A stretch of 64,000 bases of DNA from a virus: IMG/VR virus record IMGVR_UViG_3300045988_107889, positions 1-64,000 of that record; one strand, 5' to 3'. Positions 14,301 to 64,000 of this stretch are shown in pieces. Position numbers and translations under genes: made by a program. Under the pieces are notes generated by a model. It did not search any database and was not told the DNA's origin. It saw nothing but the letters and a program-made list of their open reading frames with translations. Numbering within the stretch: the stretch's first letter is position 1; each line of letters starts with the position of its first letter.

Positions 14301-17300
14301 GCCCTGCTGTCTTCTTGATGGTGTTGACAGTGTGATTCTCGACATAATTTGTGGTGATAGTCTTAGTTACATTCGGCTTTCGACTAGCTGTGTCTATCGC
14401 TGAATTGTAATTATGAACCTTTTGGGTAGCTTCTTCTGCGCCGGTGACGGTTACTTTAGTATTAACAGTGTTTTCTTTCGATCCATCACCTTGTTTCGAC
14501 GCATCAGAAGATGGTGTATATATCTTCCTGTTACCTGTTTCAGTCCGAACTTGCACAGTAACATTTTGTCCTTCGAATTCTTTTCTTATCCGCTCGACTG
14601 CACCAGGTTCCACTTCCGGAGAAACAAAAATTACCTTTCCAGTCTCGTCAGAAACAAAAGTTCCAATACCCGTTTCGGCATCTATAGTGTCAACACCTAC
14701 TGATAGGACTATTTTCTTGCCGCTATCTTTTTCAACCTGAGCGATATAATCATTTACGCTTTTATTCTCTGATTTTGCGGCACTTTTGACAGCGGATTCA
14801 TCTACCTGTAAATATCCTCCACCTATATCTGTATAAAGAATTTTGTTATAGGATTCTTGATATTTCTTAGCAAAATCCTCGACGGACATCCCAGCAACTT
14901 CTGCTGCTTTAGCTACAGCCTCATAAGAAGCAACCGTGTATTTTGAACCATCCTGCATAGAGGTTCCGAGTTGTTGGGAATATTTTGCGATTCGCTCCAG
15001 GTAGGTCATCCCAGCGTCATCAGACCAGTCTATATCAATATAGTTTCCTGCGGCGGCAAGTAAAGACTCAAAACCATCCGTCGATAGGCCAATAGCTTCA
15101 GCCACTTCTTTAAAATGGCTGACCGGGATATCCCAGTCATAATTCCCGTTTTCATCTTTTGTGAAAGAGTCGCCGTACTTCTGCAAGACGCTTTGTACAT
15201 CTTTGTCAGAACTCATTTTGTCGAAGAATGCTTGTACGCCGGACGCAGCTAAATTACCATCCGCATCTCTATTTCTGTATACTGAGTCGAATTCTTTGAG
15301 TAACTTTTGGGCTTCTTTTCTTTTCTCCGCAATATTGTTTATATTAACATCATCGAACCCTGCAAAATTTTCCTTCATGAAGCCCCAGTACATATCGTTA
15401 CCAAGCCCCGTCATGCCAGTCTTCTGATACTGCATCATATTATCATATGCCTTTACAGTCTCATCGTATGGAGCGTAAGACTTCGACATATTTTGATAAT
15501 TCTGCATACTCTTCCCGAAGGAGATCACGTCTTGCAAGACGTAACCGTACTGTTCTTCAGAAGATAATGCACGGTCAGTAGCGTCTGCCAGGTTATTGTA
15601 GTAATCACAGAGTTGCTGTGCGGTGATGCCGTGCATTTGCATAAAGGTGTCTAGCTCGTCGAATTCACCGGCAAGTGCCAAGATAGATTGCTCAGTCACA
15701 TCTCCGGCGTCACCAAGGTTATAGAAGTCATCAATTAGGGATGACAAAGTTCCGTCTGCTGCAAAACCATCGCCGATAATTTCTTCGATGGTTTTCCCTT
15801 CAGCGGCATCCATTGCTTGTATGTATGCGGCCTCCGATTCCCGGAGTAGGTCAACATATTTCTGTTCTTCAGGTGTTGCTGCTTCAAAACCGCTTAACGT
15901 ATCTTCGATAACAGAGACGTACTCTTGAGCGGCTGTTTGAGCAGCTTCAAGCTGCTGTTCATTCATATCAAGATTCGCAGAAATATTTTGCTTCGCCTCA
16001 TTTGACAAACCCGGATCTGCTAATTTTTCTTTACATTTATCAACACGTTCAGTGTATTTAAGAATATCTTCAGACGCGGCGAGGAGTCTTTCCCCAAGAA
16101 GGCCATCATAATTTCCAGAGAAAGCTGCCGATAGGGAATCCCATGCGCCGCCACTGGACGTTATAACACTTAGCGCGTCGTCATGTACTTTCTTAGATTC
16201 TGTCTCTGCTACTTCCTTTTTATACGCAAGCGTACGTCGGAGTTCCTCGTTCTCCCTTTGAAGTTTTGCGACTGTACCTTCGTCAGTAAGATTCGTATAC
16301 CCCTGATCTCGGATATTATCAATGATCTTCTGATTGGCGTCTATCTGCGTTTTTGTATTATCTACATCCGCCTGGGCCGCCTTATAAGACTCTGTTGATG
16401 CTTGCAGCTTTTCAATCTTACTGTCAAGAGACTCGGCCTTCATTGCGGTGACGCCAAACGCAGTAGCCAATGCACCAACGGCGACTACTGCGTCTGCAAC
16501 AGGATGAGCTGATATAACACCCCACAGACCACTAATTGCTCCTTTGGCCTTATCAACTCCGGCTAAAGTTTTTCCAGCGAGTATTCCACTAAAAGAATCT
16601 TTATTGTCGCCAGTAGCAAGCTGCTTAATTATATCCGCCCCGCCCTTTGCGAGCTTAACGCTCGCCACACCAGCAAGCGCAGTTTCAGCTACGGTTGCGA
16701 CAGGGCCGAGTTGATGGAACAGCTCTATTGCTTCGTTTAGAAACCCTAAGATACCTGTGCCGCCAGACACTACGCCTTTTACGAGATCAGAATTTATAGT
16801 GTTGTAAGACAGCTCTTCAAACTGCTCTTTAAACTGACCAACCTTACCGGAGATTGAGTCCATAACGACCTCATTAGCTGCTTCAGTTTCTCCGGAAGCA
16901 CTCAGCGCTTCGTCATAAGCGCCAGTCAAGTCCTTTAGGTTAGTGATAATGCCAGCAACAACGTTGGACTGATTCTTACCAGCGATGCGCTCAAGCAATG
17001 CTGCCTGGTCTGTATCAGACATCTTATCCCAAACGCTTGCAATCTCTACCATGATATCGTAAATCGACTTATAGGTAGTGGCGTTTTCCATAATATCAAC
17101 GCCAGACAACGCTTTAATTTCTGCGCGATATTTTGCAGCGGATGTCGCAACATCGTCGTAGTCTTCACCAAGTTCTTCGAGTTCAGGCTTAGATGTGCGG
17201 ATTCTTGCGGACATTGTTTTTAAAGCTGTGCCCGTTTTAATTGGGTCCTGAATTGCGGCGTTTCCGGCTGCCGCGAGGGCAACAGATTCTTCGAAGGATG

Positions 17301-18807
17301 TGTTAGCTACGTTAAGAGCCGCACCACCACGCTCCAGAGCAGTCATTAGTTCTTCTGCGCTAATAGCATAATCTTTACCGACTTTAGCCAAAACGTCAGA
17401 AACACGAGTGGCATCAGAAGCTTCAAGACCGTAGCCCTTAATAATAGAAGTTAAACCAGTCGTTGACGCACTCACTGTCGTGTCGGCAACATTTGACATG
17501 ATAGTTGCAGCATCAGCAAGAGTAGAGGCGTCTTCTAATCCATAGCCAAGACGGGTGAATGTCTCGACAGACCCAAGAACCTCTGTGACACTGTGCCCCA
17601 TATTATATGCTGAGTCTGCCGCCCTCTGGAAGAACGAGTCGAGTTCTGAGCCGCTCTTTCCAGTGACAATGGTAAGCTGAGTTAGCGCGTCATTGATATC
17701 CCTAACAGCGGTAACCATTTCCGTGGCAACTTGTTTCGCCTTATTAAAAGCACCTTGGATTGCTTCAGCAGCTGTCACGCCTTGCGCTATAGAAAGAACT
17801 TCTGATTTGAAGCCAGTCCCGGCGTTGCTCTGCCTGTAGTCTATCCCAGCAATGCCAGAGATGATTTTCTTCAGATCCGACTTACTGTACGACCCAGCTT
17901 CAACGATTGACTCAAGCTGCGCCTTATAAGATTTTAGGTTATTAACATCAGCATCATCCAGCAACGACAGCTTCTTTGGTTGATCTATGCTAGATATTTT
18001 CTTCAAAAGATTGTATACGGGGGTCAAATCGTTAGATGTGTCTTTAACCGAAGCAGAAAGCCCGTCCATTACACCCTTAGCAGCCGCAATGGCTGTTCTC
18101 GCTGAGGACTCAACTTTGCCAAAACTTTCAGCAGATACTGTTCCTAATTGGTTGAGCTGATAAATCGCGCTTTCCGCTTTTTTTAGCTCAGCTTCTACTC
18201 CTGTAGTATTTACCCCTGATGTGCCATACTTAGCTGTTTTTTCGCGGATAGCATCGACCTGTTTTTGAAGTGCTGCAGCTACTTTGTTTGGAATAGCAGT
18301 ATCTTCCAACCCTCTGGTTCTAGCCGCATTTTGTATTGCGGCGACTTTGTTTTTGCTGTTAGCAAACCTACCTCTATCGTAAGAGCCAGTCTGAATCGCG
18401 CTCCTAACAAGTCCGGCTAACACCCTCTTCTCGCTGGACAAATCGCTAGACAACGATTTGTCTTTCTGTACAGACGGATTTTTACGAACGTAATCTACGA
18501 GATTTTTATAATACTTAACAAGAGGCTCGATATTTGTAGCGGACGACTTTTTGCTTCCAGATCTACCAGCATTGCCAGAACCTCCGCTGCCTCGACTACC
18601 CTTGCCGTTGATCTTTATGTCGTCTATGTTTAGAACTAAATTTTTTGCTGCGGCATTGACAGCGTTCTGTAACCTCTTAGTATCAATTACGGGCAGGAGA
18701 TTTACCTGCACGCCGTTCTTTGCAGCAGCCGCACTAGCAGCAGCTTTCAAAGCACTACTATCAAATTCAGGTATAAGTTTTACCTTTACGCCAAATTCTT
18801 CCGCCAC
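11338..18807 (-). CDS. tail tape measure protein (2489 aa)
   Basis: Giant alpha-helical ORF between the chaperone-like genes and Dit. Core TIVTGKSGSELDSFFQRAADSAYNMGHS... is typical of TP901-type TMP regions. Contains a Lys/Ser low-complexity tract. Confidence 0.9.
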   Translation of the reverse strand: MAEEFGVKVKLIPEFDSSALKAAASAAAAKNGVQVNLLPVIDTKRLQNAVNAAAKNLVLNIDDIKINGKGSRGSGGSGNAGRSGSKKSSATNIEPLVKYYKNLVDYVRKNPSVQKDKSLSSDLSSEKRVLAGLVRSAIQTGSYDRGRFANSKNKVAAIQNAARTRGLEDTAIPNKVAAALQKQVDAIREKTAKYGTSGVNTTGVEAELKKAESAIYQLNQLGTVSAESFGKVESSARTAIAAAKGVMDGLSASVKDTSNDLTPVYNLLKKISSIDQPKKLSLLDDADVNNLKSYKAQLESIVEAGSYSKSDLKKIISGIAGIDYRQSNAGTGFKSEVLSIAQGVTAAEAIQGAFNKAKQVATEMVTAVRDINDALTQLTIVTGKSGSELDSFFQRAADSAYNMGHSVTEVLGSVETFTRLGYGLEDASTLADAATIMSNVADTTVSASTTGLTSIIKGYGLEASDATRVSDVLAKVGKDYAISAEELMTALERGGAALNVANTSFEESVALAAAGNAAIQDPIKTGTALKTMSARIRTSKPELEELGEDYDDVATSAAKYRAEIKALSGVDIMENATTYKSIYDIMVEIASVWDKMSDTDQAALLERIAGKNQSNVVAGIITNLKDLTGAYDEALSASGETEAANEVVMDSISGKVGQFKEQFEELSYNTINSDLVKGVVSGGTGILGFLNEAIELFHQLGPVATVAETALAGVASVKLAKGGADIIKQLATGDNKDSFSGILAGKTLAGVDKAKGAISGLWGVISAHPVADAVVAVGALATAFGVTAMKAESLDSKIEKLQASTESYKAAQADVDNTKTQIDANQKIIDNIRDQGYTNLTDEGTVAKLQRENEELRRTLAYKKEVAETESKKVHDDALSVITSSGGAWDSLSAAFSGNYDGLLGERLLAASEDILKYTERVDKCKEKLADPGLSNEAKQNISANLDMNEQQLEAAQTAAQEYVSVIEDTLSGFEAATPEEQKYVDLLRESEAAYIQAMDAAEGKTIEEIIGDGFAADGTLSSLIDDFYNLGDAGDVTEQSILALAGEFDELDTFMQMHGITAQQLCDYYNNLADATDRALSSEEQYGYVLQDVISFGKSMQNYQNMSKSYAPYDETVKAYDNMMQYQKTGMTGLGNDMYWGFMKENFAGFDDVNINNIAEKRKEAQKLLKEFDSVYRNRDADGNLAASGVQAFFDKMSSDKDVQSVLQKYGDSFTKDENGNYDWDIPVSHFKEVAEAIGLSTDGFESLLAAAGNYIDIDWSDDAGMTYLERIAKYSQQLGTSMQDGSKYTVASYEAVAKAAEVAGMSVEDFAKKYQESYNKILYTDIGGGYLQVDESAVKSAAKSENKSVNDYIAQVEKDSGKKIVLSVGVDTIDAETGIGTFVSDETGKVIFVSPEVEPGAVERIRKEFEGQNVTVQVRTETGNRKIYTPSSDASKQGDGSKENTVNTKVTVTGAEEATQKVHNYNSAIDTASRKPNVTKTITTNYVENHTVNTIKKTAGPSTGNSNRYNGASTSINRAKYYMGASQRLRSNGSKANGTAFAQGTSGFWGAGGSGTALGGEVGPELLVRDGSFYIIGQDGAEFFDYRSHDIIFNAAQTEELFKKGQLRGSDTRGKTAMADGTAFAGSTTGGKKNFGNPNPGVRGNSSLKSRSSSSKSNSNKKNKKKSSSKKKSSGKKKGSGSKSDAEFFDWVEVKLQRIEEAIELVKVTADSAYQTMTDRNKALKTNIGNVNKEIVTQGKAYNYYIKKANAVGLNKSYKKKVQNGAIDIDKISNKKLKEKISQYQEWYNKAQDCKKQVAELKVTVADAYKEIFDNYSTKAQNTIDRAKDYQEAFQASIDFYEEAGYKASSKYYDALIKYEAKNQNRLVAKRAGLVKKLNEAVDSGSVKIGSEAWYDMRHEIDQLTTSIIEADEALAKYRNELRQLDWDKFDDMQDGFSKLTDEANFLIDLMSEKDLYDDNGAITNEGIATKALHAQNYDVYMAQADQYAKAIAEINKSIANDPYNTKLLERREDLIESHRDAILAANDEKDALKDLAEDGFDALLDSLKDTIDEYEKALDSAKDLYDYQKNIDEQVKNISKLEKQLSAYSGDTSEESKKTVQQLKNDLKEAKDDLQDTQYDKYVSDTKELLDDLVDNFEEFINERLDDIDKLLSDAIESANKNAATVADTITSATEDVGATLSDSMKTIWGENSSKDVLANYSDSFSEECTTLNGILNEIKEYVARLYSNGDSDAAGDVKDVENQTDEGKGTPKSNTGGGSTTTTKTPTDDKKMDGIFYKKKYTGNKKKLKPNKYFIHRLKYKDYDWSMKARNEYFKKMGFEKKYGKKYEKIGGKYNKQLIAWMKKRGYASGVQGVPRDEFAWTQENGPETIIRKSDGALLTQLKRGDSVLNRDATSNIWDMANNPRNFIARAMNFGVNWPVAKVPGNTGGDIKNSIDMEIVLPNVSNYNDFMNSARSDPKFEKLVQAMTVDRLVGKNAKGKNNIKW

Positions 18808-46140: not shown

Positions 46141-47031
46141 TCAAATGGCGGCGGGGGTTGAATCAGCAGGTGCTTCGTACAGAGCAGCGAGCTGGTAGTC
46201 GTATCCGTTGCCACCCAGGTTCAGGTTGGTGTAGGCTTCGGTCATCTCTTCCTTGGTGAGGCCGATGTAGCAGAGGGTCTCGTTCATGGAGGAGTGGCCG
46301 AACATCTTCTGGAGGAGTACCAGCTTGCGAGGGTCGTTGCCGGACATCATCATCTGATGATAGCCGAACGTCTTGCGGAGGGAGTGAGAGGAGAACCGGA
46401 AGTCGAAGTTGCAGTGGTCGGCGATATCTTCTAGGATACGATTGACAGATCTTCTGTTGAGAGGACCAGGCTCGTAAGCACCACGGTTGTTGCTCTCAGA
46501 CCGGAACACTAGGTCAGACAGACTGACAGAGTAGGGTGCGTGCTCCAGGTAGAGTTCCACAGCGTCCATGACCGCGTCGTTGATGACAACGTAGCGGTTC
46601 TTTTTTCTTTTACGGGTGGAGGCAGTTTTCTTTTCCAGGATCTCAAAGGATTCTTTAAAGGAGAAGTCCTCGTTTAGGATGTGGGTGAACCGGAGACGCT
46701 GCAGGTCACTAATTCGGAGGCCGAAGTTGATGCCCATGACAAGTAGCATATGATCTCTGTAGCGGTGGTTGTCCAGAAGGTAGGAGCACGCTCTACGGAT
46801 GTCTTCAACACTCTTGATAGGGTCAGCCGCTCGGTCAGGTGCGGTGATGGCCTCTACCGGCTGGTCGCTCTGAGCGGTGATCCGGCTGGCAGCAGATTGC
46901 TTGAGTACCCGTGAACGGCTACTGTCGGCAGTCCGTGAGCGGCGGACAGAGTTGACGTCGATGGACGCGGGGTTGACAGTTTTGCTGGCGGGGTTGACAG
47001 CACTGTTGGGGAAAGAAATTAGGTTGCTCAT
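46141..47031 (-). CDS. short tyrosine recombinase (catalytic domain plus disordered N-terminus)
   Basis: GLRISDLQRLRF (box I Arg), HSLRKTFGY (HxxR), GHSSMNETLCYIG (His...Tyr). ATG at 47031 lies 8 nt after AGGAGG. Visibly GC-richer than the phage backbone. Confidence 0.85.
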   Translation of the reverse strand: MSNLISFPNSAVNPASKTVNPASIDVNSVRRSRTADSSRSRVLKQSAASRITAQSDQPVEAITAPDRAADPIKSVEDIRRACSYLLDNHRYRDHMLLVMGINFGLRISDLQRLRFTHILNEDFSFKESFEILEKKTASTRKRKKNRYVVINDAVMDAVELYLEHAPYSVSLSDLVFRSESNNRGAYEPGPLNRRSVNRILEDIADHCNFDFRFSSHSLRKTFGYHQMMMSGNDPRKLVLLQKMFGHSSMNETLCYIGLTKEEMTEAYTNLNLGGNGYDYQLAALYEAPADSTPAAI

Positions 47032-47081
47032 TGGCAAAACCTCCTTTTAAATTTGAAATGTTTTCTATTGATTATGTTACT

Positions 47082-49616: not shown

Positions 49617-50609
49617 ATGAGTAACCATACATATGTAGTCGGTGAATATACCGACTATGGTTATAAAGGTGGTGATGGTTTGTATAACGAAGATATTAAG
49701 CGGAATTTTTTGGATACGGAATGCAGTAGCTTGAAAAAGCAAAGAGATATTGCGAAAGTTTTTTCTTCTATCGCGTCGTTTGAGCAAGAGAATGGTCTAG
49801 ACATCGCTGAAATGGGCAAGAATTTGAGCGCGCAGGCTCTTGAACGTACTGGAATAAATGAGTATAGTGGAATTAGGAGTTATATTACTAGGTTAAGAGA
49901 GTATGCAAGATGGTGCGAAAAAAACAATATCTTCCCATCAATCCCCGGCGGGATTTTTGAAGTTTCTCCGGACGATGTGGATATTACAGATTCTCTAAAA
50001 GGGGTTTTGTTTAAAGACGAATTTGACTTGCTGGAGTCTATTAGATTAGTCCGTGACTTTGATTCTGGCTATCCAGAGGTTGCAGCCTTTTGTCTTTACT
50101 GGGTCGGTCTTACAAAAGACGAAGCAGTTTTGCTAAAAGACACTGACGTTGACTTGGAAAACAAGATCGTTTATGTTCATGACGGTATTGTTGCAGAAGA
50201 CTTTTCGGATGCCATTTGTGATGTATTAAACCGTTACCGTAATTGCAAATGGTCAACCCGGGCGAACGGAACTACACTCATGAGCGTTCGCAAGGATTTG
50301 TCTGTTGACACATTTCTTAAAAGGATGTTAACAGATGGTTCTAAAAAATTCGGTATGCCTGTAACAAAAACACAAATCACAGCACTATGTCAAGATGTGG
50401 TGACGGATTGTTCAGCACTTGGTCTCCCTAGTCGTCATACTTTTCAAAACGTCTGGCGGTGCGGTGGGTTCAATCGTATGTACAAGCTGGAACAATCCGG
50501 CGTGGATGTAATGAACCGCCCCACCATAGAAACGGTTTTTCGTGGAAAAAAGAATTACTACGATACACTAAGAATGTATCAATATTATAAAAAGGTCTTT
50601 GGTTTATAA
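49617..50609 (+). CDS. tyrosine-recombinase-fold-like protein with apparently degenerate active site
   Basis: AAFCLYWVGLTKDEAVLLKDTDVDLENKIVYV resembles integrase box I but has K instead of R. C-terminal HTFQNVWRCGGFNRMY sits in place of HxxR...Y. Tentative. Confidence 0.35.
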   Translation: MSNHTYVVGEYTDYGYKGGDGLYNEDIKRNFLDTECSSLKKQRDIAKVFSSIASFEQENGLDIAEMGKNLSAQALERTGINEYSGIRSYITRLREYARWCEKNNIFPSIPGGIFEVSPDDVDITDSLKGVLFKDEFDLLESIRLVRDFDSGYPEVAAFCLYWVGLTKDEAVLLKDTDVDLENKIVYVHDGIVAEDFSDAICDVLNRYRNCKWSTRANGTTLMSVRKDLSVDTFLKRMLTDGSKKFGMPVTKTQITALCQDVVTDCSALGLPSRHTFQNVWRCGGFNRMYKLEQSGVDVMNRPTIETVFRGKKNYYDTLRMYQYYKKVFGL

Positions 50610-55571: not shown

Positions 55572-55647
55572 ACCAGCATAGTTTTAAATGGGAAAACAAC
55601 GGTCTCCAAAACCGTAGTTCTAGGTTCGAGTCTTAGTGCTGGTGCCA
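55572..55647 (+). tRNA. trnW-CCA: tRNA-Trp (CCA)
   Basis: ACCAGCA/UGCUGGU acceptor (A1-U72, G73), anticodon arm ACGGU-CUCCAAA-ACCGU, T-loop UUCGAGU, CCA encoded. Confidence 0.85.
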
Positions 55648-55714
55648 CGTGCAAGTTTAATTGCACGGTGTGTAGTGTGAAAAAAGTCATATATTGCTCT
55701 ATGTATATAACCTC

Positions 55715-55863
55715 ACGGCGTAAAAGAGGTTGACTGTCTGACCGCAGTTATTCCAGTGCAATTCTGGTTGCCGTACACGCTGCTCAAAGCGGGTGAAGAG
55801 GTGTGGCACACTCCTTCCGTGCCTCACTTATGACTTCAAGGCGGTGCAATTCCGCCTAGCAGC
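55715..55863 (+). ncRNA. two adjacent tRNA-like / degenerate tRNA elements sharing a hairpin loop UGCAAUU
   Basis: Unit 1 (55715-55774): ACGGCG...CCAG-UGCAAUU-CUGG-UUGCCGU. Unit 2 (55779-55863): GCUGCU...GGCAC-ACUCCUUCC-GUGCC...GGCGG-UGCAAUU-CCGCC-UAGCAGC. Both lack a D-stem and CCA. Confidence 0.35.
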
Positions 55864-56053
55864 TCTCAATCGCTCTAGTTAACTGGTTCTGGGGCGAGGG
55901 TCAAAACCAGCAACCTAAACATTGATTGCAGACACCTGGTTAAGTACAGGCTAGGCAAGAAAGCTCTCAGGCACGGTTGGGCAACACAATCCAGCCCTAT
56001 CCTTTGGTTAGGCCGACTGATTGATAGGGCGGTTGTGGTTGCTGAACAAATAT

Positions 56054-56144
56054 CTCCCTGTAGCTAAATTGGTTATAGCTTCCAACTTATAATTGGAAGG
56101 CCCTCATAAGGTATATGGTGATTCGAATTCACCCAGGGAGACCA
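56054..56144 (+). tRNA. tRNA with anticodon UAU (Ile2-type reading AUA) but a class II-like 19-nt variable arm
   Basis: CUCCCUG/CAGGGAG acceptor, D-arm GCUA..UAGC, anticodon arm UCCAA-CUUAUAA-UUGGA, variable region AGGCCCUCAUAAGGUAUAU, T-arm GGUGA-UUCGAAU-UCACC, A-CCA. Confidence 0.65.
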
Positions 56145-56195
56145 CGATACCACGATAAAAATCTAATTCCATAAATAAGAAAGTGAGGAACTAAT

Positions 56196-56849
56196 ATGAA
56201 CAAAGAAACTATGACCGTCCATAAAGCTCTTGCGGAGCTGAAAATTTTGGACGCTAGAATTTTCAACGCCACTTCTGGCAAAACATTTGTCGCCGCGAAG
56301 AAGGTGAGCGACAAAAAGATCGGCGGTGTGTTGGTCGAAACCCTCAAGAAGGATATGAAGTCTGATTATCAGTCTGTTACGGACTTGATTGCTCGTCGGA
56401 CTGCCATTAAGAGAGCAGTTGTGCTCTCTAATGCCAAAGCTAAGGTAGTAATTGGTGGTGAGACCTATACTGTGGCAGAAGCTATTGAAATGAAGAACCA
56501 TGGCCTCATGGCAAAGAGAGACTTGCTGGATGTAATGGTTCGGCAGTATGAAAAGGCTCGTGCCGAGGTCGCCAAACACGAAGGCGAGTGGATTGAAGCG
56601 AAAGCCGAGCAATACATTATGAATTTCCTTCAGTCGCAGCCCAAAGAGGCCAAGACAACCAAGGATTCTGAGGTCGTTAAGCGGTTGAGAGAAGAGTATA
56701 TTGCCAACAATACGTATGAACTCATTGATCCGCTTGACATTGGTAATGAAATCAAGGTTTTGAGCGATTGGATTGACGCGTTTACTGCGGATGTAGATTC
56801 TCAGCTGTCTGTGTCCAATGCGACCACTACAATCACCGTAGAATACTAA
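56196..56849 (+). CDS. hypothetical protein embedded in the tRNA array
   Basis: 217-aa ORF with RBS gtgaggaactaat-ATG. Helical and Lys/Glu-rich. Confidence 0.7.
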   Translation: MNKETMTVHKALAELKILDARIFNATSGKTFVAAKKVSDKKIGGVLVETLKKDMKSDYQSVTDLIARRTAIKRAVVLSNAKAKVVIGGETYTVAEAIEMKNHGLMAKRDLLDVMVRQYEKARAEVAKHEGEWIEAKAEQYIMNFLQSQPKEAKTTKDSEVVKRLREEYIANNTYELIDPLDIGNEIKVLSDWIDAFTADVDSQLSVSNATTTITVEY

Positions 56850-56856
56850 AATAATC

Positions 56857-57199
56857 AACTTGCTGCAACCCGAAAACCTAAAACGGTAACCCATCGTGCT
56901 GACGGCACTTGGTTCGATGTAAAAATGAACAAATATGTGCCAACTACAAGGCAAACTTGAAATTTTGTGCTTGTAAAAAGATTGGGCGGTTAATCCAAAT
57001 CTCTTATAAAAAGAAGATATTTGCTGTAAAGCTCAAATTTCAAAGCTCGAATTTCAAAATTCAAGGCTCAAAGATCTTCAGAAGATTAAAGTTCAAGGGT
57101 CAACGTTCAATGGTTAAAGTTTTACAAAATCCTGGGTTAATGGTTTGGGTCAGTTATCAACGCCCACGGGTCAACCACCAGGCTGGGTTGTAGCAAGTT
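56857..57199 (+). ncRNA. ~343-nt element closed by a 15-bp helix, containing TTCAA/GCTCAA-type short repeats
   Basis: AACUUGCUGCAACCC (56857-56871) pairs with GGGUUGUAGCAAGUU (57185-57199). The single difference is a G-U wobble only on the plus-strand RNA. The interior has aagctcaaatttca/aagctcgaatttca and ttcaagg(c/g)tcaa repeats. Confidence 0.4.
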
Positions 57200-57205
57200 C
57201 AATAT

Positions 57206-57290
57206 GCGGGATTGGCGGAATTGGTAGACGCATCGTGTTTAAGTCTCGATGTCGAAAGACGTAGGAGTTCGAGTCTCCTATCCCGTACCA
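57206..57290 (+). tRNA. trnL-UAA: tRNA-Leu (UAA)
   Basis: GCGGGAU/AUCCCGU acceptor, anticodon loop UUUAAGU, long variable arm, T-loop UUCGAGU, A-CCA. Confidence 0.8.
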
Positions 57291-57439
57291 AAGAAAAGCC
57301 CATAGTTTGCGGACTATGACACCTGAAAAGTGGCGGTTTGCTTCTGGTAGACCGTAGTAGTGTGTTGACATCCTGGAAGAGACAGGAGTTCCCCTTTTTG
57401 ATCCCCCTTACATAGCTACCCCGCTTTGCGGGGTAGCGT

Positions 57440-57515
57440 GGCCGATTAGTTTAAATGGTAAAACGGCGGATTTGTACCCCGCAGATGTCGAGTTCGAGCC
57501 TCGCATTGGCCTCCA
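57440..57515 (+). tRNA. trnT-UGU: tRNA-Thr (UGU)
   Basis: GGCCGAU/AUUGGCC acceptor, anticodon loop UUUGUAC, T-loop UUCGAGC, U-CCA. Confidence 0.8.
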
Positions 57516-57516
57516 T

Positions 57517-57590
57517 GCTACTATAGTTTAATGGTTGAACGGTTGTTTCGTAAGCAACAGGTTCCAGTTCGATTCTGGGTAGTAGCTCCA
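57517..57590 (+). tRNA. trnT-CGU: tRNA-Thr (CGU)
   Basis: GCUACUA/UAGUAGC acceptor, anticodon arm GUUGU-UUCGUAA-GCAAC, T-loop UUCGAUU, U-CCA. Confidence 0.85.
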
Positions 57591-57593
57591 TAT

Positions 57594-57668
57594 CTGGGTG
57601 TAGCGCAATGGAAGCGCTCCTGATTTGGGATCAGGAGGTTGTCAGTTCGAGCCTGACCACTCAGACCA
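57594..57668 (+). tRNA. trnP-UGG: tRNA-Pro (UGG)
   Basis: C1-G72 acceptor CUGGGUG/CACUCAG, anticodon arm CCUGA-UUUGGGA-UCAGG, A-CCA. Confidence 0.85.
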
Positions 57669-57670
57669 AT

Positions 57671-57745
57671 GCAGGCGTAGTTCAACGGCTAGAACACCGG
57701 TCTTCCAAACCGGAAACGCGAGATCGGCACTCGTCGCCTGCTCCA
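57671..57745 (+). tRNA. trnG-UCC: tRNA-Gly (UCC), non-canonical T-loop AUCGGCA
   Basis: GCAGGCG/CGCCUGC acceptor, anticodon arm CCGGU-CUUCCAA-ACCGG, U-CCA. Confidence 0.8.
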
Positions 57746-57851
57746 TATCAAGCAACAGAAAACGATTCTCCTACCTGTTATTGTTGATAAATCACCTCCT
57801 TTCTTTACATAGCCTGGAATGGCGTTAAACTCTGCTCTGCTTGATTTATAT

Positions 57852-57925
57852 AGCGCCGTAGCATAACGGTAATGCAACGGACTTTGACTCCGTAAACGGT
57901 AGTTCGACACTATCCGGCGCTGCCA
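57852..57925 (+). tRNA. trnQ-UUG: tRNA-Gln (UUG)
   Basis: AGCGCCG/CGGCGCU acceptor, anticodon arm ACGGA-CUUUGAC-UCCGU, T-loop UUCGACA, G-CCA. Confidence 0.8.
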
Positions 57926-57983
57926 CGTTCGTTTTATACGGACACTTGCTTTCATTAACCGGCGGTACCACCGCCGGTAACAT

Positions 57984-58068
57984 GTGGGCGTGATGTAATT
58001 GGCAAACATGCGAGATTTAGGTTCTCGTGTCGAAAGATGTGCGGGTTCGAACCCCGTCGCCCACTCCA
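57984..58068 (+). tRNA. trnL-UAG: tRNA-Leu (UAG)
   Basis: GUGGGCG/CGCCCAC acceptor, anticodon arm CGAGA-UUUAGGU-UCUCG, long variable arm, U-CCA. Confidence 0.85.
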
Positions 58069-58132: not shown

Positions 58133-59005
58133 ATGACAGTGACAGCTTATGAAGAATTGTTGAGCAAGTTGTTGTTCGAAGAACGGAACGGTGGACAGTT
58201 GGCGTATGCTTACGTGTCTCCGGAAATGGCGACGGGTTTGTTGGCTATGTCCGGCGGCAATCGTCCGATCAGTAAGAGCACTGTGAATAAGTACAAGTCC
58301 CATATGATGAATGGCACATGGGATGAAGATACTCCGACTGGCTTTATTATGTTTGATAAGGCTGGTGTTCTTATCGACGGGCATCACCGGCTCGAAGCAG
58401 TGAAGCGCTGCGGTAAGACAGTAAAGATGTTCTTCCTGTTCAATATGGAACGCAGTCCGTACATTGACCGGGGTAGGGCGAGAAGTGAAGCCGACGCTTT
58501 GTGTATGGCCGAGGGCGGAAACAGAGGAAAGATTTCTTCTTACAAGCGCTCGGTTGCAATCTGCATGGTGCTGAATGAGTTTAGTGCGAGGCACTTGGAG
58601 AATGAAGCTAAGAGAGCGGACATGATTTCGAAGCACATCGCTGAATTCTCCTGGGTTAATAGTTTCTTGAAGGTGAGACAGAGAAAACTTGGCACGGCTC
58701 CGGTCACAGCTGCCATGTATCTGGCGAAAGAAGCCGGAGCGAGCGATGTTAAGCTCGAATACTTCTGGAATGTTCTCCAGACTGGTTATGCTGAGTCTAG
58801 TTTGGATAGGCAGATTGTCCGCTTGAGAGATTGGATTAAGGATTCTACTATTGATGGCCGGTGCAAGCATTATCGTCACCGTGTGTTCTTGACGACCTCT
58901 TATGTGTTGTCCAGATGGTTGGACGGCAAGGAAACCAAAGGCGTTCCCGATCCTGAGTGCTTGGTTGTTTGGAACAACGGTCAGCAAAGAATTGATAACG
59001 CATAA
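58133..59005 (+). CDS. ParB/Srx-fold (ParB N-terminal-like) domain protein
   Basis: GVLIDGHHRLEAVKR motif is typical of ParB-like nuclease/NTPase domains. RBS taggaggtacatacaa-ATG. Confidence 0.6.
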   Translation: MTVTAYEELLSKLLFEERNGGQLAYAYVSPEMATGLLAMSGGNRPISKSTVNKYKSHMMNGTWDEDTPTGFIMFDKAGVLIDGHHRLEAVKRCGKTVKMFFLFNMERSPYIDRGRARSEADALCMAEGGNRGKISSYKRSVAICMVLNEFSARHLENEAKRADMISKHIAEFSWVNSFLKVRQRKLGTAPVTAAMYLAKEAGASDVKLEYFWNVLQTGYAESSLDRQIVRLRDWIKDSTIDGRCKHYRHRVFLTTSYVLSRWLDGKETKGVPDPECLVVWNNGQQRIDNA

Positions 59006-59458
59006 ATAGAATCGCAATTTGAACAAACGTCAGTAACTACAGTTAATAACCAACAAAAACATTCGCATTTTTTCTCAAAAAAAATGAGAAGCTATTTCCG
59101 GAACGGGATAGTAATATATTGCCAGAGGAGAGCATCTCGCTGCCAAGCCTGATGGCAGTACCGCCGAGCGACTCGTGCATCCGCCAACCCAGCCGCAGGT
59201 CATCACAAGAGCAGACGCGAAAAAAAAAATGCCCACCACGCAGTCGCCCCGCATCAGAAAGGCACAAGGCTCGAAGCGACATGGAAGGTCGCAACGGTAC
59301 AACTATAGGCAAACGCACCCTGCAAGCAACGCAAGTACATTATGGCGCAAGCCACCTAACGACATCGCTCGATTTCCTGATTTCCTGAGGCCCATATCTA
59401 GGAGTGTAATGTTGGTTTACGACTGAGTTAATAATACATGAAAAAAGGAGTACATAAC

Positions 59459-59848
59459 ATGGAAATTATCGTATGTGGTAACGCAGTAACGCTCAAGAGT
59501 GCTTTCACTCTTGAAGAAATCAATCGCGCAGCTCTGTATCGGCCTAAGTCTGTACAGCTGCTGGACGAAGATGGCAACGCACTGTTTTACACTCTCGCTG
59601 GCGAGAGAGGAGTAGTAGCACCGACCGGTATTATCTATGAGGCTGAGTCTTGTGATGGCTCTGGTCGTGCGGTCGTAACAGTGAGTCTTATTACCGAAGC
59701 TGACCGTTCCGTACGTGAGGTTGTTGCCGAGAGATATGCTTCTGTTATCGAGAAGGTAGAAAAGATTGAAGCCCAGGTGCGCGAAGCGCTGGAAGAGATC
59801 GACGTTATGATGGCACGGGTCAGTTCCAAGATCGTAGTAGCTGGCTAA
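59459..59848 (+). CDS. hypothetical protein
   Basis: Start moved to MEIIVCGN (RBS aaggag plus 9 nt). Confidence 0.6.
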   Translation: MEIIVCGNAVTLKSAFTLEEINRAALYRPKSVQLLDEDGNALFYTLAGERGVVAPTGIIYEAESCDGSGRAVVTVSLITEADRSVREVVAERYASVIEKVEKIEAQVREALEEIDVMMARVSSKIVVAG

Positions 59849-59889: not shown

Positions 59890-60129
59890 ATGATTATTGT
59901 TAATGTTCGTAGCACCACCCGGCGTTTTGATGGTCAGGCTGTAGATGAGAGCGTGGAAACCCCTCGTTCTCTGTTCGAGAAGATCGGAATTGAGTGCAGC
60001 CGTAGCGTAAATTCTCTTTCCGGCACGATTCTGACGCCTGATGATATGAGTTGCACTTTTGCCGAACTTGGTGCCGCTGGTGTTTGTACTCTGAGTGCTA
60101 TTGTTAAGGCGCAAGGTAACGCGATCTGA
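59890..60129 (+). CDS. hypothetical small protein
   Basis: 79-aa ORF with RBS gaaaggaagtataac-ATG. Confidence 0.55.
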   Translation: MIIVNVRSTTRRFDGQAVDESVETPRSLFEKIGIECSRSVNSLSGTILTPDDMSCTFAELGAAGVCTLSAIVKAQGNAI

Positions 60130-60255
60130 TTCGAGTTAGCACAATCTACGAGGCCGGACAATGTCCGGCCTCGTACATAACACAGTGAGTTGCTGGGAGG
60201 GCATTCGGTTACGTCGGATGACCTGCCAAGAGTTCATAAAGAAAGGAGAAGATAT

Positions 60256-61671
60256 ATGTTTTCAAATTGTTTGAAGCGCAGTGAAGTTTTAGTGCTGGCC
60301 CCAGAGCTGGAGTCTGAGTTTTCTAATATTGCTGGCGACGGGACGTTCAAAGGCGATGACTTTGCGTTGGCAATGGCTCGGTTGTTTTTGAAGCCAAGAG
60401 TTCCGGCGGACGTGTGCATCACGGTTAGAGTGGTGGATTCTAATTGTGCTGATTGGATTACGTGGATAAAAGACAAAGAGCGTTTTTCGGAGGTGACTTC
60501 TCAAGACAACACAATTACATTTTGCGTGTGTGATAAGGTTAAGGCCGTAGAAACTTTAGTCAGTAATATGAAATGTGCGAGCAGTTGGAAAGAGAAGACG
60601 GCAAGAGAGCTGAATCTAATGAAAGAACGACTCGGTATCATACTGAGAATTTTCAGTAATGAAGAGAGGAAGAGTACGGTTGTCCTTACCGACGTGGATA
60701 ACTATGGCTCGTGGCATTACCTAGTGTGTCTTTTCAATGTATTCTGCCCATGGTACATTAAAGACAGGACTGAAGCGGAGTCAAAGTTTATTAAGATTCT
60801 GTCCAAAGAAGACTCCGGCATGAGTGTAATCTGTAAAGCGATGAACGATATGGTTGCCGCTGCTGTGGACGTGGCCTCAGCTAAAAAGAGATATTACCTT
60901 TATGGCTATGAGGGAAAGCTAAGGAACGTACAGAGGGAAAGATACACAAAGAAGATGGAGAGTGCAAGAAGTCAGATCAATAAATTGACGTCCGATTTGA
61001 GAGATTGGTATAGAGAATACGAAGGTTGGTCTTTGTTGGTGGCAGCAATTGACAACAGTAATGTTGAGAGCAAGAACGAGTTAATGGATTATTTTCTGTC
61101 GAACAAAAATGTGTCTGTTGAGAGCGGTGACAAAGATGGGAATATCGTATATGTTGTAACTGGTTATATGACACTGTTTGATCCAGAGATTGCGAGAGAG
61201 TACATCAACAATTGGTCGTCGATTTTTTATACGCAGTCTTCGTATGCGGGCCTGACAGAAAGTGATACTAAAAAGTTAATGACAGGGATTTTCATTGACT
61301 CTGATATCAAAGTAAGAATGTGTTCCGCATGGAGACTTTCTTTCGGAGGAGGGGTACTACCCATCGTGGCATATGGGTATGGCTGTGAATACAACAGCTA
61401 TCTCCCCAACACACACCTTGATAAATATGGTTGCATGGGGAGCTGGCAACAGGCGTTAGAGAAATCTTGCGACAAATGTGACTACGTTTATACGGTAGAC
61501 ACGACGTGTGCCGAAAGCGGGAATCTGAATCTTAGTGATACTGTCGTATTGAGATCATTCCTTGAAGAGTTGTTGAGAGAAGGCGCTGTAGTATTGGAGT
61601 TGCCGGATGGGCGAGTAGTTAATTACATCGACGCAATTAAATGGATAAAGGAGAATAAGAGCAATGAATAA
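60256..61671 (+). CDS. hypothetical 471-aa protein, translationally coupled to the JAB protein
   Basis: Start moved to MFSNCLK (RBS aaaggagaagatat-ATG). C-terminal Cys/His-rich part. 8-nt overlap with the next gene. Confidence 0.65.
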   Translation: MFSNCLKRSEVLVLAPELESEFSNIAGDGTFKGDDFALAMARLFLKPRVPADVCITVRVVDSNCADWITWIKDKERFSEVTSQDNTITFCVCDKVKAVETLVSNMKCASSWKEKTARELNLMKERLGIILRIFSNEERKSTVVLTDVDNYGSWHYLVCLFNVFCPWYIKDRTEAESKFIKILSKEDSGMSVICKAMNDMVAAAVDVASAKKRYYLYGYEGKLRNVQRERYTKKMESARSQINKLTSDLRDWYREYEGWSLLVAAIDNSNVESKNELMDYFLSNKNVSVESGDKDGNIVYVVTGYMTLFDPEIAREYINNWSSIFYTQSSYAGLTESDTKKLMTGIFIDSDIKVRMCSAWRLSFGGGVLPIVAYGYGCEYNSYLPNTHLDKYGCMGSWQQALEKSCDKCDYVYTVDTTCAESGNLNLSDTVVLRSFLEELLREGAVVLELPDGRVVNYIDAIKWIKENKSNE

Positions 61672-62350
61672 GGCAACTAATGCAACGGATTTGTTGGCTG
61701 CGACAAATCCGTGCAAAATCGTATACAGTAAGAAGGCATGGATGAAGACGTGTTTGCTTGTTATGAATAGGAATCTTGAGGTTGGATGGCACGGAGTTGC
61801 AAGAAGGTTGGAAAATCCAGCTGAGTTTATCGTGGAGGACGTCTTGGTATTCCCCCAGAAGGTCACGTCGGCAAGCACCGAACCTGAAGATGCGGACTAT
61901 GTGAACTGGCAGGATTCTCTTAACACGGAAATATTCAATAAGGTTCGGTTGTACGGGCATTCTCATGTGAACATGGGTGTCAGTCCATCTTCTACGGATA
62001 TAAAGTATAGAGCAGATTTGCTGACAGACGTTGATGATTTCTACGTCTTTCAGATTTTCAATAAGAAAGGCTACATATCCTCACAGGTTTATGATGTTAG
62101 AGAAGGCATCCTGTACGAAAGCGACAATGTGGAACTCGCAGTGGAACGATGGAACCCCGCTGTATATGATTTGTGCAGAGGGTTTTTCGATAACATTGAC
62201 CGGTTTGAGAAGGTGGACGTGCGTGATGTACAGGATGGAATCGAGTGGATCATGAACGCAGCATCCGAGTTTGAAAAATTCATGGAGGACGCAGATAAAA
62301 TTATTGATGAGCGGCCCGATTGGCGTGACGGTAAGATGTTAATTAAGTAA
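61664..62350 (+). CDS. JAB/MPN-family metalloprotease-like protein
   Basis: GHSHVNMGVSPSSTD fits the JAMM motif HxH-x7-S-xx-D. An upstream conserved Glu lies in EFIVEDVLVFPQ. Confidence 0.6.
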   Translation: MNKATNATDLLAATNPCKIVYSKKAWMKTCLLVMNRNLEVGWHGVARRLENPAEFIVEDVLVFPQKVTSASTEPEDADYVNWQDSLNTEIFNKVRLYGHSHVNMGVSPSSTDIKYRADLLTDVDDFYVFQIFNKKGYISSQVYDVREGILYESDNVELAVERWNPAVYDLCRGFFDNIDRFEKVDVRDVQDGIEWIMNAASEFEKFMEDADKIIDERPDWRDGKMLIK

Positions 62351-62523
62351 AAAACATATGTGCCTGTACAGATATGTTAAATTACATATCACTCTTGTCG
62401 GAACGAGGGAGTAACAAATGGCTGTGTCGCTTCAAAAGTTTTCCGCTCTGGGAGTAGGAAAACTTTTTGAACTTAAACAGCTGGTTAGCTGTTCAGAGGT
62501 ACATAAGAAAGGAGAAGACCGGT

Positions 62524-62865
62524 ATGGAGGTATATTGTGTGATAACAGAAACAGACCAGGGTATTGATTTATCCGGTGTTTATTGGAATTTGGAGAGTGC
62601 GGTAGAACACGTGAAACGTAGGTTTTATTCAGTGTTTCAAGAATACGTCGATGATGGATGCGAAATGATTGAAGGTGACAATTTTAATGCTCCAGATAAA
62701 TACGGCGCGACAATTTATCTGGAACCGGACGACTATTGGATTTGGCGTGTTTACTTTGGCGAAGTAAGAGATGAGTGCCTGGTGAGTGGGCCGAACGAAG
62801 TGGTGCCGCCGCTAGAAGGGAAGCGTGTTGACGAAGAGACGCTTATGAATTGTTTGCTGCTATAG
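62524..62865 (+). CDS. small protein with conserved C-terminal tail ...VDEETLMNCLLL (CLLL family, member 1; divergent N-terminal domain)
   Basis: Start at ATG 62524 (RBS aaaggag). Ends AAT TGT TTG CTG CTA TAG. Confidence 0.65.
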   Translation: MEVYCVITETDQGIDLSGVYWNLESAVEHVKRRFYSVFQEYVDDGCEMIEGDNFNAPDKYGATIYLEPDDYWIWRVYFGEVRDECLVSGPNEVVPPLEGKRVDEETLMNCLLL

Positions 62866-62872
62866 AGGTGAT

Positions 62873-63214
62873 ATGATGTTTGAACTTGGGCAGAAAGTTA
62901 CGCTTGCCCCAAAGTCATGGGATGAATTTCGGGGTGCTTTAATGGAGTTGTTTGCGAGAGAGATGATAGTAGATGAATTCTCAACTACTCATAAAGAAAT
63001 GATATTGGTTACAGGGGTGCTTTATGGGGAAGGCGATTCTTGGTTTAACGACCTTCTAATAAATGGAGGTGAGATTATCAAGTGCTATGCTACTGGTTGG
63101 TATATGGTGAATATAAATGGAGTAAAACTGAAATTTCACGAAAGCGTGTTGTGTCTGAAAGAAGACATGAGGTCAGTTGATGAAAAATTGTTCATAAGTT
63201 GCTTATTATTGTGA
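62873..63214 (+). CDS. CLLL-family small protein, member 2 (...VDEKLFISCLLL)
   Basis: RBS agaggtgat. MFELGQKVTLAPKSWDEF N-terminus is paralogous to members 3-5. Confidence 0.7.
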   Translation: MMFELGQKVTLAPKSWDEFRGALMELFAREMIVDEFSTTHKEMILVTGVLYGEGDSWFNDLLINGGEIIKCYATGWYMVNINGVKLKFHESVLCLKEDMRSVDEKLFISCLLL

Positions 63215-63223
63215 GGTGATATA

Positions 63224-63556
63224 ATGTTTAGACCTGGGCAGCGGGTTGAGCTTATTCCCAAAACGTGGGATGAATTTAATGATAACTTACGGGCGGTATT
63301 TCCGAATGGAGCTGTGTCGCAGAGCGTAGACATCATCACAAACGAAAGATTTATATACGCCGACGATGTGATGTACGCGGAGGGCGATCCTTACCTCAGA
63401 GAGTTTATAAGAGACGGCGGCGAGATCGTTGAGTATGAACTTGGCGGTTGGTACAGGATAAGGGTTAGCAAAAAAGAGATGTCTTTCTATAAAAGTGTGT
63501 TGCGGTTAAAGCAATCTATTGATGAGCAGGTTTTTATGAACTGTTTGTTGTTGTGA
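63224..63556 (+). CDS. CLLL-family small protein, member 3 (...IDEQVFMNCLLL)
   Basis: RBS gaggtgat. MFRPGQRVELIPKTWDEF. Confidence 0.7.
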   Translation: MFRPGQRVELIPKTWDEFNDNLRAVFPNGAVSQSVDIITNERFIYADDVMYAEGDPYLREFIRDGGEIVEYELGGWYRIRVSKKEMSFYKSVLRLKQSIDEQVFMNCLLL

Positions 63557-63570
63557 TAAGAGGTGGCGCT

Positions 63571-63840
63571 TTGAATATCGTAGCTGGTCAGAAATTTAGA
63601 GTTAAAAAGTGGTCAGAAAGCAATTCTGACCGCTTTTTTACCAGTAGCCATGAAAAGTATTGCGGGAAAACATTAACGGTGAGAGAAAAAGGTATACATA
63701 GAGGTGTGAGCGGTTACGTTCGCCCGATAATTTGGGCGTACGAATGTAGAGAGGTCGTGTGGTTTTCATGGATGATAGAACCTATTGAGGACCGCCGTCG
63801 TGTTAATGAAAATCTGTTTCTAAGCTGCTTGTTGTTGTAG
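63571..63840 (+). CDS. CLLL-family small protein, member 4 (...VNENLFLSCLLL)
   Basis: Probable TTG start at 63571 after agaggtgg (the ORF-track start is 63553). NIVAGQKFRVKKWSES. Confidence 0.6.
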   Translation: MNIVAGQKFRVKKWSESNSDRFFTSSHEKYCGKTLTVREKGIHRGVSGYVRPIIWAYECREVVWFSWMIEPIEDRRRVNENLFLSCLLL

Positions 63841-63847
63841 GTGATGT

Positions 63848-64000
63848 ATGAAATTTGAAGATATGTATGTTGGGCAAAAGATTAGGGTACGGACTTTAGA
63901 CGACATGGTATCTGACCCTGATTTAACGTATAGACTTGATAAGTCTTTTAAAGTAGCGACGATCAGGTCTAAGGATAATACAACTCATTTGAGCTTAATT
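63848..64000 (+). CDS. CLLL-family-like small protein, member 5 (partial, runs off the window)
   Basis: ATG at 63848 after aggtgatgt. MKFEDMYVGQKIRVRTLDDM parallels the GQK/R-V motif of members 2-4. Confidence 0.55.
   Translation, partial: MKFEDMYVGQKIRVRTLDDMVSDPDLTYRLDKSFKVATIRSKDNTTHLSLI

Follow-up and report, generated by a model that had tools for sequence, protein, structure and literature searches.

A C-terminal tail with an invariant cysteine shared by tandem small proteins in one clade of gut phages

Why should several small phage proteins, not all of them related, end in nearly the same peptide? The question is raised by a 64,000-nucleotide (nt) stretch of viral DNA, positions 1-64,000 of IMGVR_UViG_3300045988_107889 (the window), in which a cassette of tail-bearing genes runs to the right edge. 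A first-pass annotation had described at least four consecutive genes with this ending and a fifth starting at 63848, and the open reading frames (ORFs) and their translations bear out four complete genes followed by the start of a fifth. Judged by sequence comparison, the tail family is real, strongly selected and previously undescribed, and it is confined to one phage clade.

Anatomy of the tail and selection on the peptide

All five genes are on the plus strand. Member 1 (62524..62865, 113 residues) consists of an alpha/beta body, a Pro-rich linker, SGPNEVVPPLEGKR, and the tail VDEETLMNCLLL, whose 12 codons occupy 62827..62862. Members 2 (62873..63214, 113 residues) and 3 (63224..63556, 110 residues) have small beta-rich bodies and end in VDEKLFISCLLL (tail codons 63176..63211) and IDEQVFMNCLLL (63518..63553), respectively; the tail Cys is the sole cysteine of member 3. 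Member 4 (63571..63840, 89 residues) ends in VNENLFLSCLLL (63802..63837). Its longest ORF begins at GTG 63553, but the start is probably TTG 63571, because a ribosome-binding site (RBS), GAGGTGG, lies upstream of it and the orthologues P0012, P0016 and L002:7094-7363 agree. The 5′ part of member 5 (63848..64000, beginning MKFEDMYVGQK...) is cut by the window end.

The stop codon directly follows the tail in all four complete members. Each member has an RBS (GGAGG or GAGGTG) a few bases past the preceding stop, so that the RBS of the next gene lies within 1-10 nt of each tail, and the spacers between the cassette genes are 7-14 nt. Promoter and terminator scans gave counts at chance level, with none convincing inside the cassette. 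No further ORF in the window ends in Cys plus three aliphatic residues like these, and four adjacent tails are thus far beyond chance. The ratio of non-synonymous to synonymous polymorphism (pN/pS) between orthologues is 0.25-0.49 (0.26 for member 1 against its L005 orthologue, 0.49 for member 2), indicating expressed coding genes under moderate constraint.

How many copies follow the window edge had been left to an extension of the sequence. The sibling contigs, which were reached via homologues of member 3, show exactly one further copy, member 5, and then a ThiF gene. The member 5 orthologue ends there in ...VFLSCLML, and ThiF begins 12-14 nt on; the full-length orthologues have the ends VDSNVFLSCLML (L002:7371-7709) and VDSDVFLNCLML (L001:3707-4042).

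The tails follow the consensus (V/I)-D-E-x-h-(F/L)-h-(N/S)-C-L-L-L-stop. The module is laid out as an acidic cap, V-D-E, and a uniformly hydrophobic stretch of eight residues, h-F/L-h-(N/S/D/G)-C-L-(L/M/S)-L, ending at the free carboxylate. Codons were compared in 24 tails from 7 contigs. Three residues are invariant, each with two or three codons: Cys at -4 (TGT in 14, TGC in 10), Leu at -3 (TTG, TTA, CTG) and Leu at -1 (CTA, TTG, TTA). L, M or S is tolerated at -2 and N, S, D or G at -5, and all three kinds of stop codon are used.

Within the window, any two tails have 6-9 of 12 residues but 21-28 of 36 nt in common, with 2-5 synonymous and 3-6 non-synonymous codon differences; the bodies display 20-36% identity. 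The codons specific to each paralogue are preserved from phage to phage. The similarity is therefore old and peptide-selected, and not the result of recent gene conversion. By these comparisons the tail is conserved at the level of the peptide and not of the DNA, which upholds what the first-pass annotation had read from the synonymous codons of the window copies. A constraint on the DNA itself, with the 3′ ends of the genes serving as a recombination or translation-coupling sequence and the tail as its by-product, would account for the deletions and fusions between tails described below and for the closeness of the next RBS. However, the tail DNA varies to the extent given above while the key residues are invariant, and the synonymous codons at all invariant positions, together with the three stops, contradict such a constraint. 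We regard it as extremely unlikely.

In about 50 sequences the Cys stands exactly 3 residues from the end, and the tail is never extended. From this fixed register, the free end appears to be read. The last 8 residues have a mean hydrophobicity of 0.54-0.86, and if the tail is drawn as a helix its hydrophobic moment is 0.01-0.10, that is, near none. A low moment in a uniformly hydrophobic end fits a buried plug rather than a surface helix. An amphipathic helix or membrane anchor was ruled out by the moment of about zero together with the acidic cap.

The first-pass annotation had also pointed out that such an end is formally a CaaX-type box. C-L-(L/M/S)-L-stop does fit C-a-a-L, and a match to the PPTA repeat was obtained on p471, a protein encoded upstream of the cassette, below threshold (E 0.02, 15.1 bits against 29.5). 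That match, of 18 residues only, is the sole lead to an enzyme, and the host is judged to be a Firmicute (see below). A Pfam scan of 19 window proteins plus ThiF, the reverse transcriptase and neighbours on L002 detected no prenyltransferase, Rce1-like or Icmt-like gene. The idea that the tail is prenylated as a eukaryote-type CaaX box can be given practically no credence.

Unrelated bodies and a cassette of variable size

Two unrelated kinds of body carry the tail: that of member 1, and the small beta-rich body of members 2-6. Members 2 and 3 are 37% identical (BLASTP E 2e-27). When the profile of member 1 was aligned with that of members 4 and 5 by hhalign, only 18 tail columns aligned, and BLASTP of member 1 against the other members likewise aligned the tail only, over 14 residues. 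The earlier remark that member 1 has an unrelated N-terminal domain with a shared tail is thus borne out, and the tail is portable between unrelated bodies, since nothing else aligns between member 1 and the others. Body and tail are joined by 3-6 residues in members 2-5, against a Pro-rich stretch of about 16 in member 1.

AlphaFold2 predicts for member 3 a fold of eight strands and two helices, with a predicted local distance difference test (pLDDT) score of 90 and a predicted template modelling (pTM) score of 0.78. Residues 101-108, which belong to the tail, come out as a short helix placed with low confidence. The core has a pLDDT above 90 as against about 56 in the last 10 residues; on this ground the tail is probably flexible and not packed on its own domain. 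Foldseek searches of the model against PDB and BFVD found nothing below E 1e-3. The best matches were weak ones to SH3, Tudor-Agenet and KOW barrels, with no ubiquitin-like or beta-grasp match among them.

A flexible hydrophobic end might send a protein to destruction. If the tail were a C-terminal degron, it would deliver early proteins to a host AAA+ protease and so make their action transient. Its last 8 residues are uniformly hydrophobic up to the extreme C-terminus, and in the model the tail appears flexible and exposed, as a degron should be. Parsell, Silber and Sauer reportedly found in 1990 that non-polar C-termini destabilise bacterial cytoplasmic proteins. Bacterial tags of the ssrA type end in LAA, which the present tail does not resemble. 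Degrons are moreover usually degenerate; they need neither an invariant Cys, nor a fixed register, nor a V-D-E cap, and there is no obvious reason to select 5-6 accessory proteins that are all unstable. We therefore consider a degron unlikely.

The family was unrecognised in the first-pass annotation, and it stays so after database searches. Members 1-5 have no match at E <0.1 in Pfam or PHROGs, members 3 and 5 have none in PADLOC, and neither blastn of 60000-64000 nor tblastn of member 3 matched any GenBank phage. A profile of members 2-4 run against 1.84 billion representative proteins yielded six true relatives, all CLLL-ended and all of the same clade; two further matches were discarded as spurious repeat proteins. 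The back-translated tail pattern, worth 44 bits, has 0 matches in 185,579 GTDB species genomes. In IMG/VR and the JGI metagenomes it occurs in the same phage clade only, bar the chance matches L011, L012 and L021. The cassette proteins are all named 'hypothetical protein [Caudoviricetes sp.]' in the databases, and our literature search found no paper with these tail sequences.

Arrays of 85-120-residue proteins were observed beside the same gene module in two other clades (L007:2836-4491 and 14496-14795; L008:2811-3982 and 8689-9937). These small proteins start with ...G(D/E/Q)xVxI..., have acidic-hydrophobic ends such as TEDELLGFLGG and EEELLAFLEA, and match phrog_7488 weakly (E 2e-7). Like the cassette proteins, those of the phrog_7488 type are small, beta-rich and arrayed next to the module; the window proteins, however, do not match phrog_7488, and the L007 and L008 tails have neither the Cys nor the fixed register. 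Against the cassette profiles, hhalign gave probabilities of 23% and 57%, the latter with the member-4/5 profile. They may be remote, Cys-less relatives of the cassette proteins.

The tail-bearing genes, about 50 in all, come from some 20 loci on a dozen or more contigs. Their position is constant: in one SPbeta-like clade, all of them lie between a JAMM/JAB gene and the ThiF gene. The number of cassette copies is not constant. It is 0 in L014, 2 in L005, 3 in L004 and in L015/L016, 4 in L001, 5 in L002 and L003, at least 5 in the window, and 6 in L019/L020. L015/L016 include a truncated member of 68 residues. The six-member cassette of L019 (ERZ4559376, Hadza gut), the largest, is on a 202-kb contig; as this is about twice the phage genome size, the contig may represent a prophage in its integrated state, from which the host could be learned. 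At several junctions the tail of one member is fused to the downstream RBS of another, and the tail-plus-RBS segment is therefore a recombination point.

Seventeen homologues of member 1, of 62-98% identity, keep the tail wherever the C-terminus is intact, except P0030-32. These belong to the L014 lineage, in which a single deletion starts at the member 1 linker and takes in everything up to and including the last tail. The lineage is found on 4 contigs; since it is still seen there without the cassette, the cassette is dispensable. The tail-less member 1 of L014 was rejected as an independent loss of the tail, as one deletion took tail and cassette together. Homologues without the tail would have told against the family as first described, and this lineage is the sole one. 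Single-base insertions at L004:7960-8023 and L005:7960-8023 throw the last cassette gene out of frame, and it then runs into the start of ThiF. The apparent 'alternative tails' so created are not a second module: they arise from +1 frameshifts in A5/T5 runs, with ...CLML and the stop readable in the next frame, and the frameshifts may be either assembly errors or incipient pseudogenes.

The anatomy of the tail, its selection as a peptide, its portability, its restriction to one clade, the dynamics of the cassette and its genomic position are direct observations. The explanation we favour, tentatively and as something possible rather than probable, is that the tail is a portable C-terminal docking or address peptide for one common receptor. 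It is suggested by the portability, the flexible linker, the fixed register at the terminus, the hydrophobic end with its acidic cap, and the fast-changing accessory nature of the carriers. The cassette would be a hypervariable accessory set of 0-6 genes in an early operon on the plus strand, growing and shrinking by duplication and by recombination at the tail-plus-RBS junctions. The tail would hang flexibly from the body and plug its hydrophobic end into a pocket of a single receptor, and different 'heads' would thereby be brought to the same place. Both the non-covalent binding and the identity of the receptor we infer; the first candidates would be the operon products JAB, ThiF, p471 and p79, and host or virion proteins are also possible.

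Several points weigh against such docking. The low pLDDT of the tail may merely reflect a shallow alignment of 10 sequences. Docking alone needs no absolutely invariant Cys, which hints at chemistry there, and a uniformly hydrophobic C-terminus is expected to be a degron or to aggregate in bacteria. In addition, the cassette is always inside an otherwise tightly coupled JAB-ThiF pair, and covalent processing would also fit this placement.

The partner of a tail might also be another tail. Homo- or hetero-oligomeric bundling of the tails, possibly around a metal held by the Cys, would give a multi-headed complex. Several paralogues are usually co-encoded and probably co-translated, each tail supplies one invariant Cys, and the sole lineage without the other members is also without the tail of member 1. 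That lineage came from one deletion, however, and is not an independent case, and eight hydrophobic residues are short for a stable bundle. We think such mutual binding distinctly improbable.

The large terminase of the phage (29569-31344) has 43% identity to YonF of SPbeta. The phage also encodes an integrase (46141-47037), an MrpR-like recombinase (49617-50609) and a GH25 lysin with PG_binding_1 (153-1466). The genome size in the clade is about 107 kb, and the samples are from human gut. The SPbeta-like terminase and the GH25 lysin point to an SPbeta-like phage of a gut Firmicute. The structural genes are at 0-42 kb on the minus strand, and the cassette is on the opposite, plus strand. A 2489-residue ORF (11338-18807) was noted inside the minus-strand structural region, and the GC skew changes sign near 43-44 kb of the window.

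A virion- or capsid-targeting peptide would bring small anti-defence proteins into the HK97-type head, to be injected along with the DNA. The variation in copy number, the fast divergence of the small proteins, the invariant terminal peptide and its portability all resemble the ip proteins of T4, and anti-restriction genes and a protease gene lie nearby, the latter adjacent. But the cassette operon is on the strand opposite to the structural genes, and the tail is unlike known cargo-loading peptides. Virion loading is, in our estimate, about as improbable as bundling of the tails.

The JAB-ThiF module around the cassette

The upstream border of the cassette is a candidate JAMM/JAB-type metalloprotease of 228 residues (61664..62350, plus strand). 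A Glu (in EVGWHG) and GHSHVxM..PS..D, which agrees with HxHx7SxxD, are invariant in 7 homologues of 27-84% identity. The first-pass annotation had placed a JAB protease just upstream of the tails; the invariant JAMM motif supports this, though the profile matches are weak (PADLOC JAB E 0.037, RPN11 E 0.24). On the other side, just beyond the window in the sibling contigs, ThiF is an E1-like protein of 222 residues with matches to Pfam PF00899 (E 8e-24) and PADLOC E1-E2 (1e-16) and an invariant P-x-S-A-C loop. Its PDB relatives are UBA5 and MccB at about 1e-10, MccB being second-best (E 8e-10). After ThiF comes a retron-like reverse transcriptase (RT) of 388 residues (PADLOC RT_II-A 3e-40).

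These genes belong to a wider module. A ThiF-profile scan of IMG/VR returned 168 relatives, of which 80 loci were kept (L029-L108), and module parts were counted in these 80 by tblastn. The order is p136, p79, p471, JAB, ThiF and retron-like RT, and the module is present in at least 80 IMG/VR contigs, usually near tRNA clusters. JAB and ThiF were each detected in all 80 loci, RT in 79, p471 in 78, p136 in 65 and p79 in 37. A protein with the JAMM motif (HxHx7[STAC]xxD) is just upstream of ThiF in 80/80. Our literature search found no paper describing a phage ThiF-JAB-RT module.

In the window the module is on the plus strand and the cassette interrupts it. Nine tRNA genes (Trp, Ile-TAT, Leu x2, Thr x2, Pro, Gly and Gln) cluster on the plus strand at 55572-58068. 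Just downstream of them is a ParB-like gene (58133-59005; phrog_5931, E 3e-32), and p136 (59438..59848), p79 (59890..60129), p471 (60256..61671) and JAB come next in this order. The p471 protein has the invariant residues H154, PW165-166, N385, H387 and C393. Its AlphaFold2 model (pLDDT 85, pTM 0.49) has no Foldseek match, and sequence and profile searches with it were empty. The motif P-N-(P/T)-H-x5-C, formed by N385, H387 and C393, recalls the HPN...Cys signature of E2 enzymes and may be E2-like; no E2 was recognised in the module.

A skipping-rope RNA was found at L002:8398-8478 on the plus strand, 7 nt past the ThiF stop and about 340 nt before RT; it scores 54.3 bits for Rfam RF02924 (E 3e-12), where the gathering score is 36.7. 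By synteny it would be about 1 kb beyond the window end. It was not detected at the gathering score in 11 more distant loci with the same module. Skipping-rope is an orphan RNA motif without known function (PMC5737381).

The tail could be the substrate or recognition site of the flanking enzymes: ThiF would adenylate the terminal Leu and/or JAB would trim the tail, and the proteins would be conjugated, cyclised or matured, much as Cap2 and Cap3 treat CD-NTases. The genomic placement and the invariant Cys keep this reading alive. Every tail gene is between JAB and ThiF with short spacers, ThiF is a genuine E1-type domain, and an invariant Cys at a fixed distance from the carboxylate suits C-terminal chemistry. 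In the one well-studied precedent, a protein that is not ubiquitin-like has its tail acted on by both an E1 and a JAB (PMC10097602). By the placement of neighbouring genes, with JAB upstream and ThiF so close behind the last member, the cassette looks like that of a ubiquitin-like protein (Ubl). By the terminal residue it does not: in place of Gly or Ala, C-L-L-L is the most conserved part, and -5 is N, S, D or G.

The distribution of the pair also speaks against a tail substrate. JAB and ThiF occur together in all 80 loci, and in 66 of the 77 outside the window clade they lie side by side or overlap (gap -31 to +62 nt) without any cassette, which among the 80 loci sits at this junction in the window clade only. 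As the pair is kept without the cassette in related loci, JAB and ThiF have another conserved job. In the remaining 11 of 77, one to three genes are inserted at the junction, so that unrelated cargo occupies the same place in other clades. Six of these 11 have a homologous, very acidic protein of 165-207 residues, possibly a DNA mimic (MTRxEFFxxV..W..L.D.C..., at about 5400-5990 in L054, L070, L074, L081, L097 and L098). L035 and L037 have a 100-residue lipoprotein-like ORF there instead. An ArdA anti-restriction gene was noted upstream; together with the other cargo at the JAB-ThiF junction, it fits an accessory host-interaction region.

Moreover, the module has its own Ubl-like candidate. 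p79 has a conserved C-terminal motif, ...VVKAD(N/S/G)A, after which come 0-2 variable residues. In L009:5030-5653 and L010:4977-5651, p79 is fused in frame to p136, and the join, ...KADNA-VNAV..., comes right after the p79 motif. This suggests a precursor that would be cut by the adjacent JAB protease. Ubls that are trimmed by JAB before E1 activation, such as BilA, have the same C-terminal pattern as p79 (PMC10557695). No Pfam or PDB profile match supports a Ubl fold for p79, and its candidacy comes entirely from the C-terminal pattern and the p136 fusion; with these it is likely the cognate substrate of the E1/JAB pair.

The body of the cassette proteins, as modelled for member 3, does not appear to be a beta-grasp. 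To our knowledge, a Leu-Leu-Leu end would be unprecedented for an E1. The Cap2 reaction of CBASS (cyclic-oligonucleotide-based antiphage signalling system) is abolished when the C-terminal Gly is changed to Ser, Val, Arg or Trp (PMC10097602). Taking both sides together, we find it doubtful that the tail is a substrate of ThiF or JAB, and we continue to prefer an address peptide.

A special form of this chemistry would use the Cys itself. ThiF would adenylate the terminal Leu, and Cys -4 would attack it, closing a C-terminal thiolactone of four residues, cyclo(C-L-L-L). The result might be a JAB-released cyclic signal like an autoinducing peptide (AIP), or a self-charged thioester for E2-free attachment to targets; in both cases a phage would encode a novel type of chemistry at the protein C-terminus. 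MccB, PaaA and TcdA of the ThiF family cyclise acyl-adenylates, yet we know of no thiolactone-forming E1, and this cyclisation would be without precedent. The cassette products, of 89-122 residues, are folded proteins, unlike the short leader-core precursors (MccA/AgrD type) of ribosomally synthesised and post-translationally modified peptides. We hold this to be very unlikely.

If the tail is indeed an address tag, the accessory proteins of the phage would all converge on a single site, be it within the infected cell or the virion. The receptor would then reveal a hub of host takeover or anti-defence in abundant SPbeta-like gut phages, and the tag, being short, portable and read at a free end, might serve as an engineering handle. 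If the Cys instead reacts with the E1-like and JAB enzymes, a new post-translational reaction would be at hand. The p79-p471-JAB-ThiF-RT module, widespread and apparently undescribed, is worth study apart from the tail.

Comparison with known systems

The internal proteins of T4 (ipI-III, Alt) share with the cassette a short invariant terminal peptide on small, fast-evolving accessory proteins of a phage that are in part unrelated to one another, and the ip loci have a variable copy number and an associated protease as well. The capsid-targeting sequence of T4 is N-terminal, contains an L-x-E site at which the gp21 prohead protease cuts, and directs packaging. The present tail, in contrast, is C-terminal and hydrophobic, has an invariant Cys, and would direct packaging by analogy only.

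Encapsulin cargo-loading peptides and microcompartment peptides are comparable to the tail in being short, flexibly linked and portable, and in docking by a hydrophobic pocket. They dock in a pocket of the shell protein and contain no Cys. The tail differs in its motif and its Cys, and any shell partner of it would be hypothetical.

For the thiolactone, the likeness is to MccB, PaaA and TcdA on the one hand, MccB being close to ThiF, and to AgrD and AIP on the other, a Cys near a hydrophobic C-terminus being the geometry of the AIP thiolactone. AIP rings, however, are the work of AgrB and comprise at least 5 residues, and the cassette products differ from AIP precursors in being folded proteins.

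Type II CBASS, with Cap2 (E1-E2) and Cap3 (JAB), also places an E1 and a JAB beside non-Ubl proteins with a conserved C-terminus (PMC10097602). In that bacterial defence, Cap2 conjugates the CD-NTase C-terminus and accepts only Gly or Ala as the last residue (PMC10097602). The cassette proteins finish in C-L-L-L instead, the system is phage-encoded, no E2 is recognised, and the E1/JAB pair is kept without the cassette.

The Bil and Bub systems share with the module an E1-like ThiF, a JAB and a small p79-like protein, and the p79 motif followed by 0-2 residues or by a fusion partner is as in BilA (PMC10557695). The cassette proteins differ in that they are not beta-grasp and have no Gly end; no E2 was found, and a retron-like RT is part of the module.

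In principle, its closest analogues may be the cargo peptides of encapsulins and microcompartments and the capsid-targeting sequence of T4. Two things are unusual for a portable terminal tag: its Cys never varies, and it is set within a phage Ubl-like/JAB/E1/RT module.

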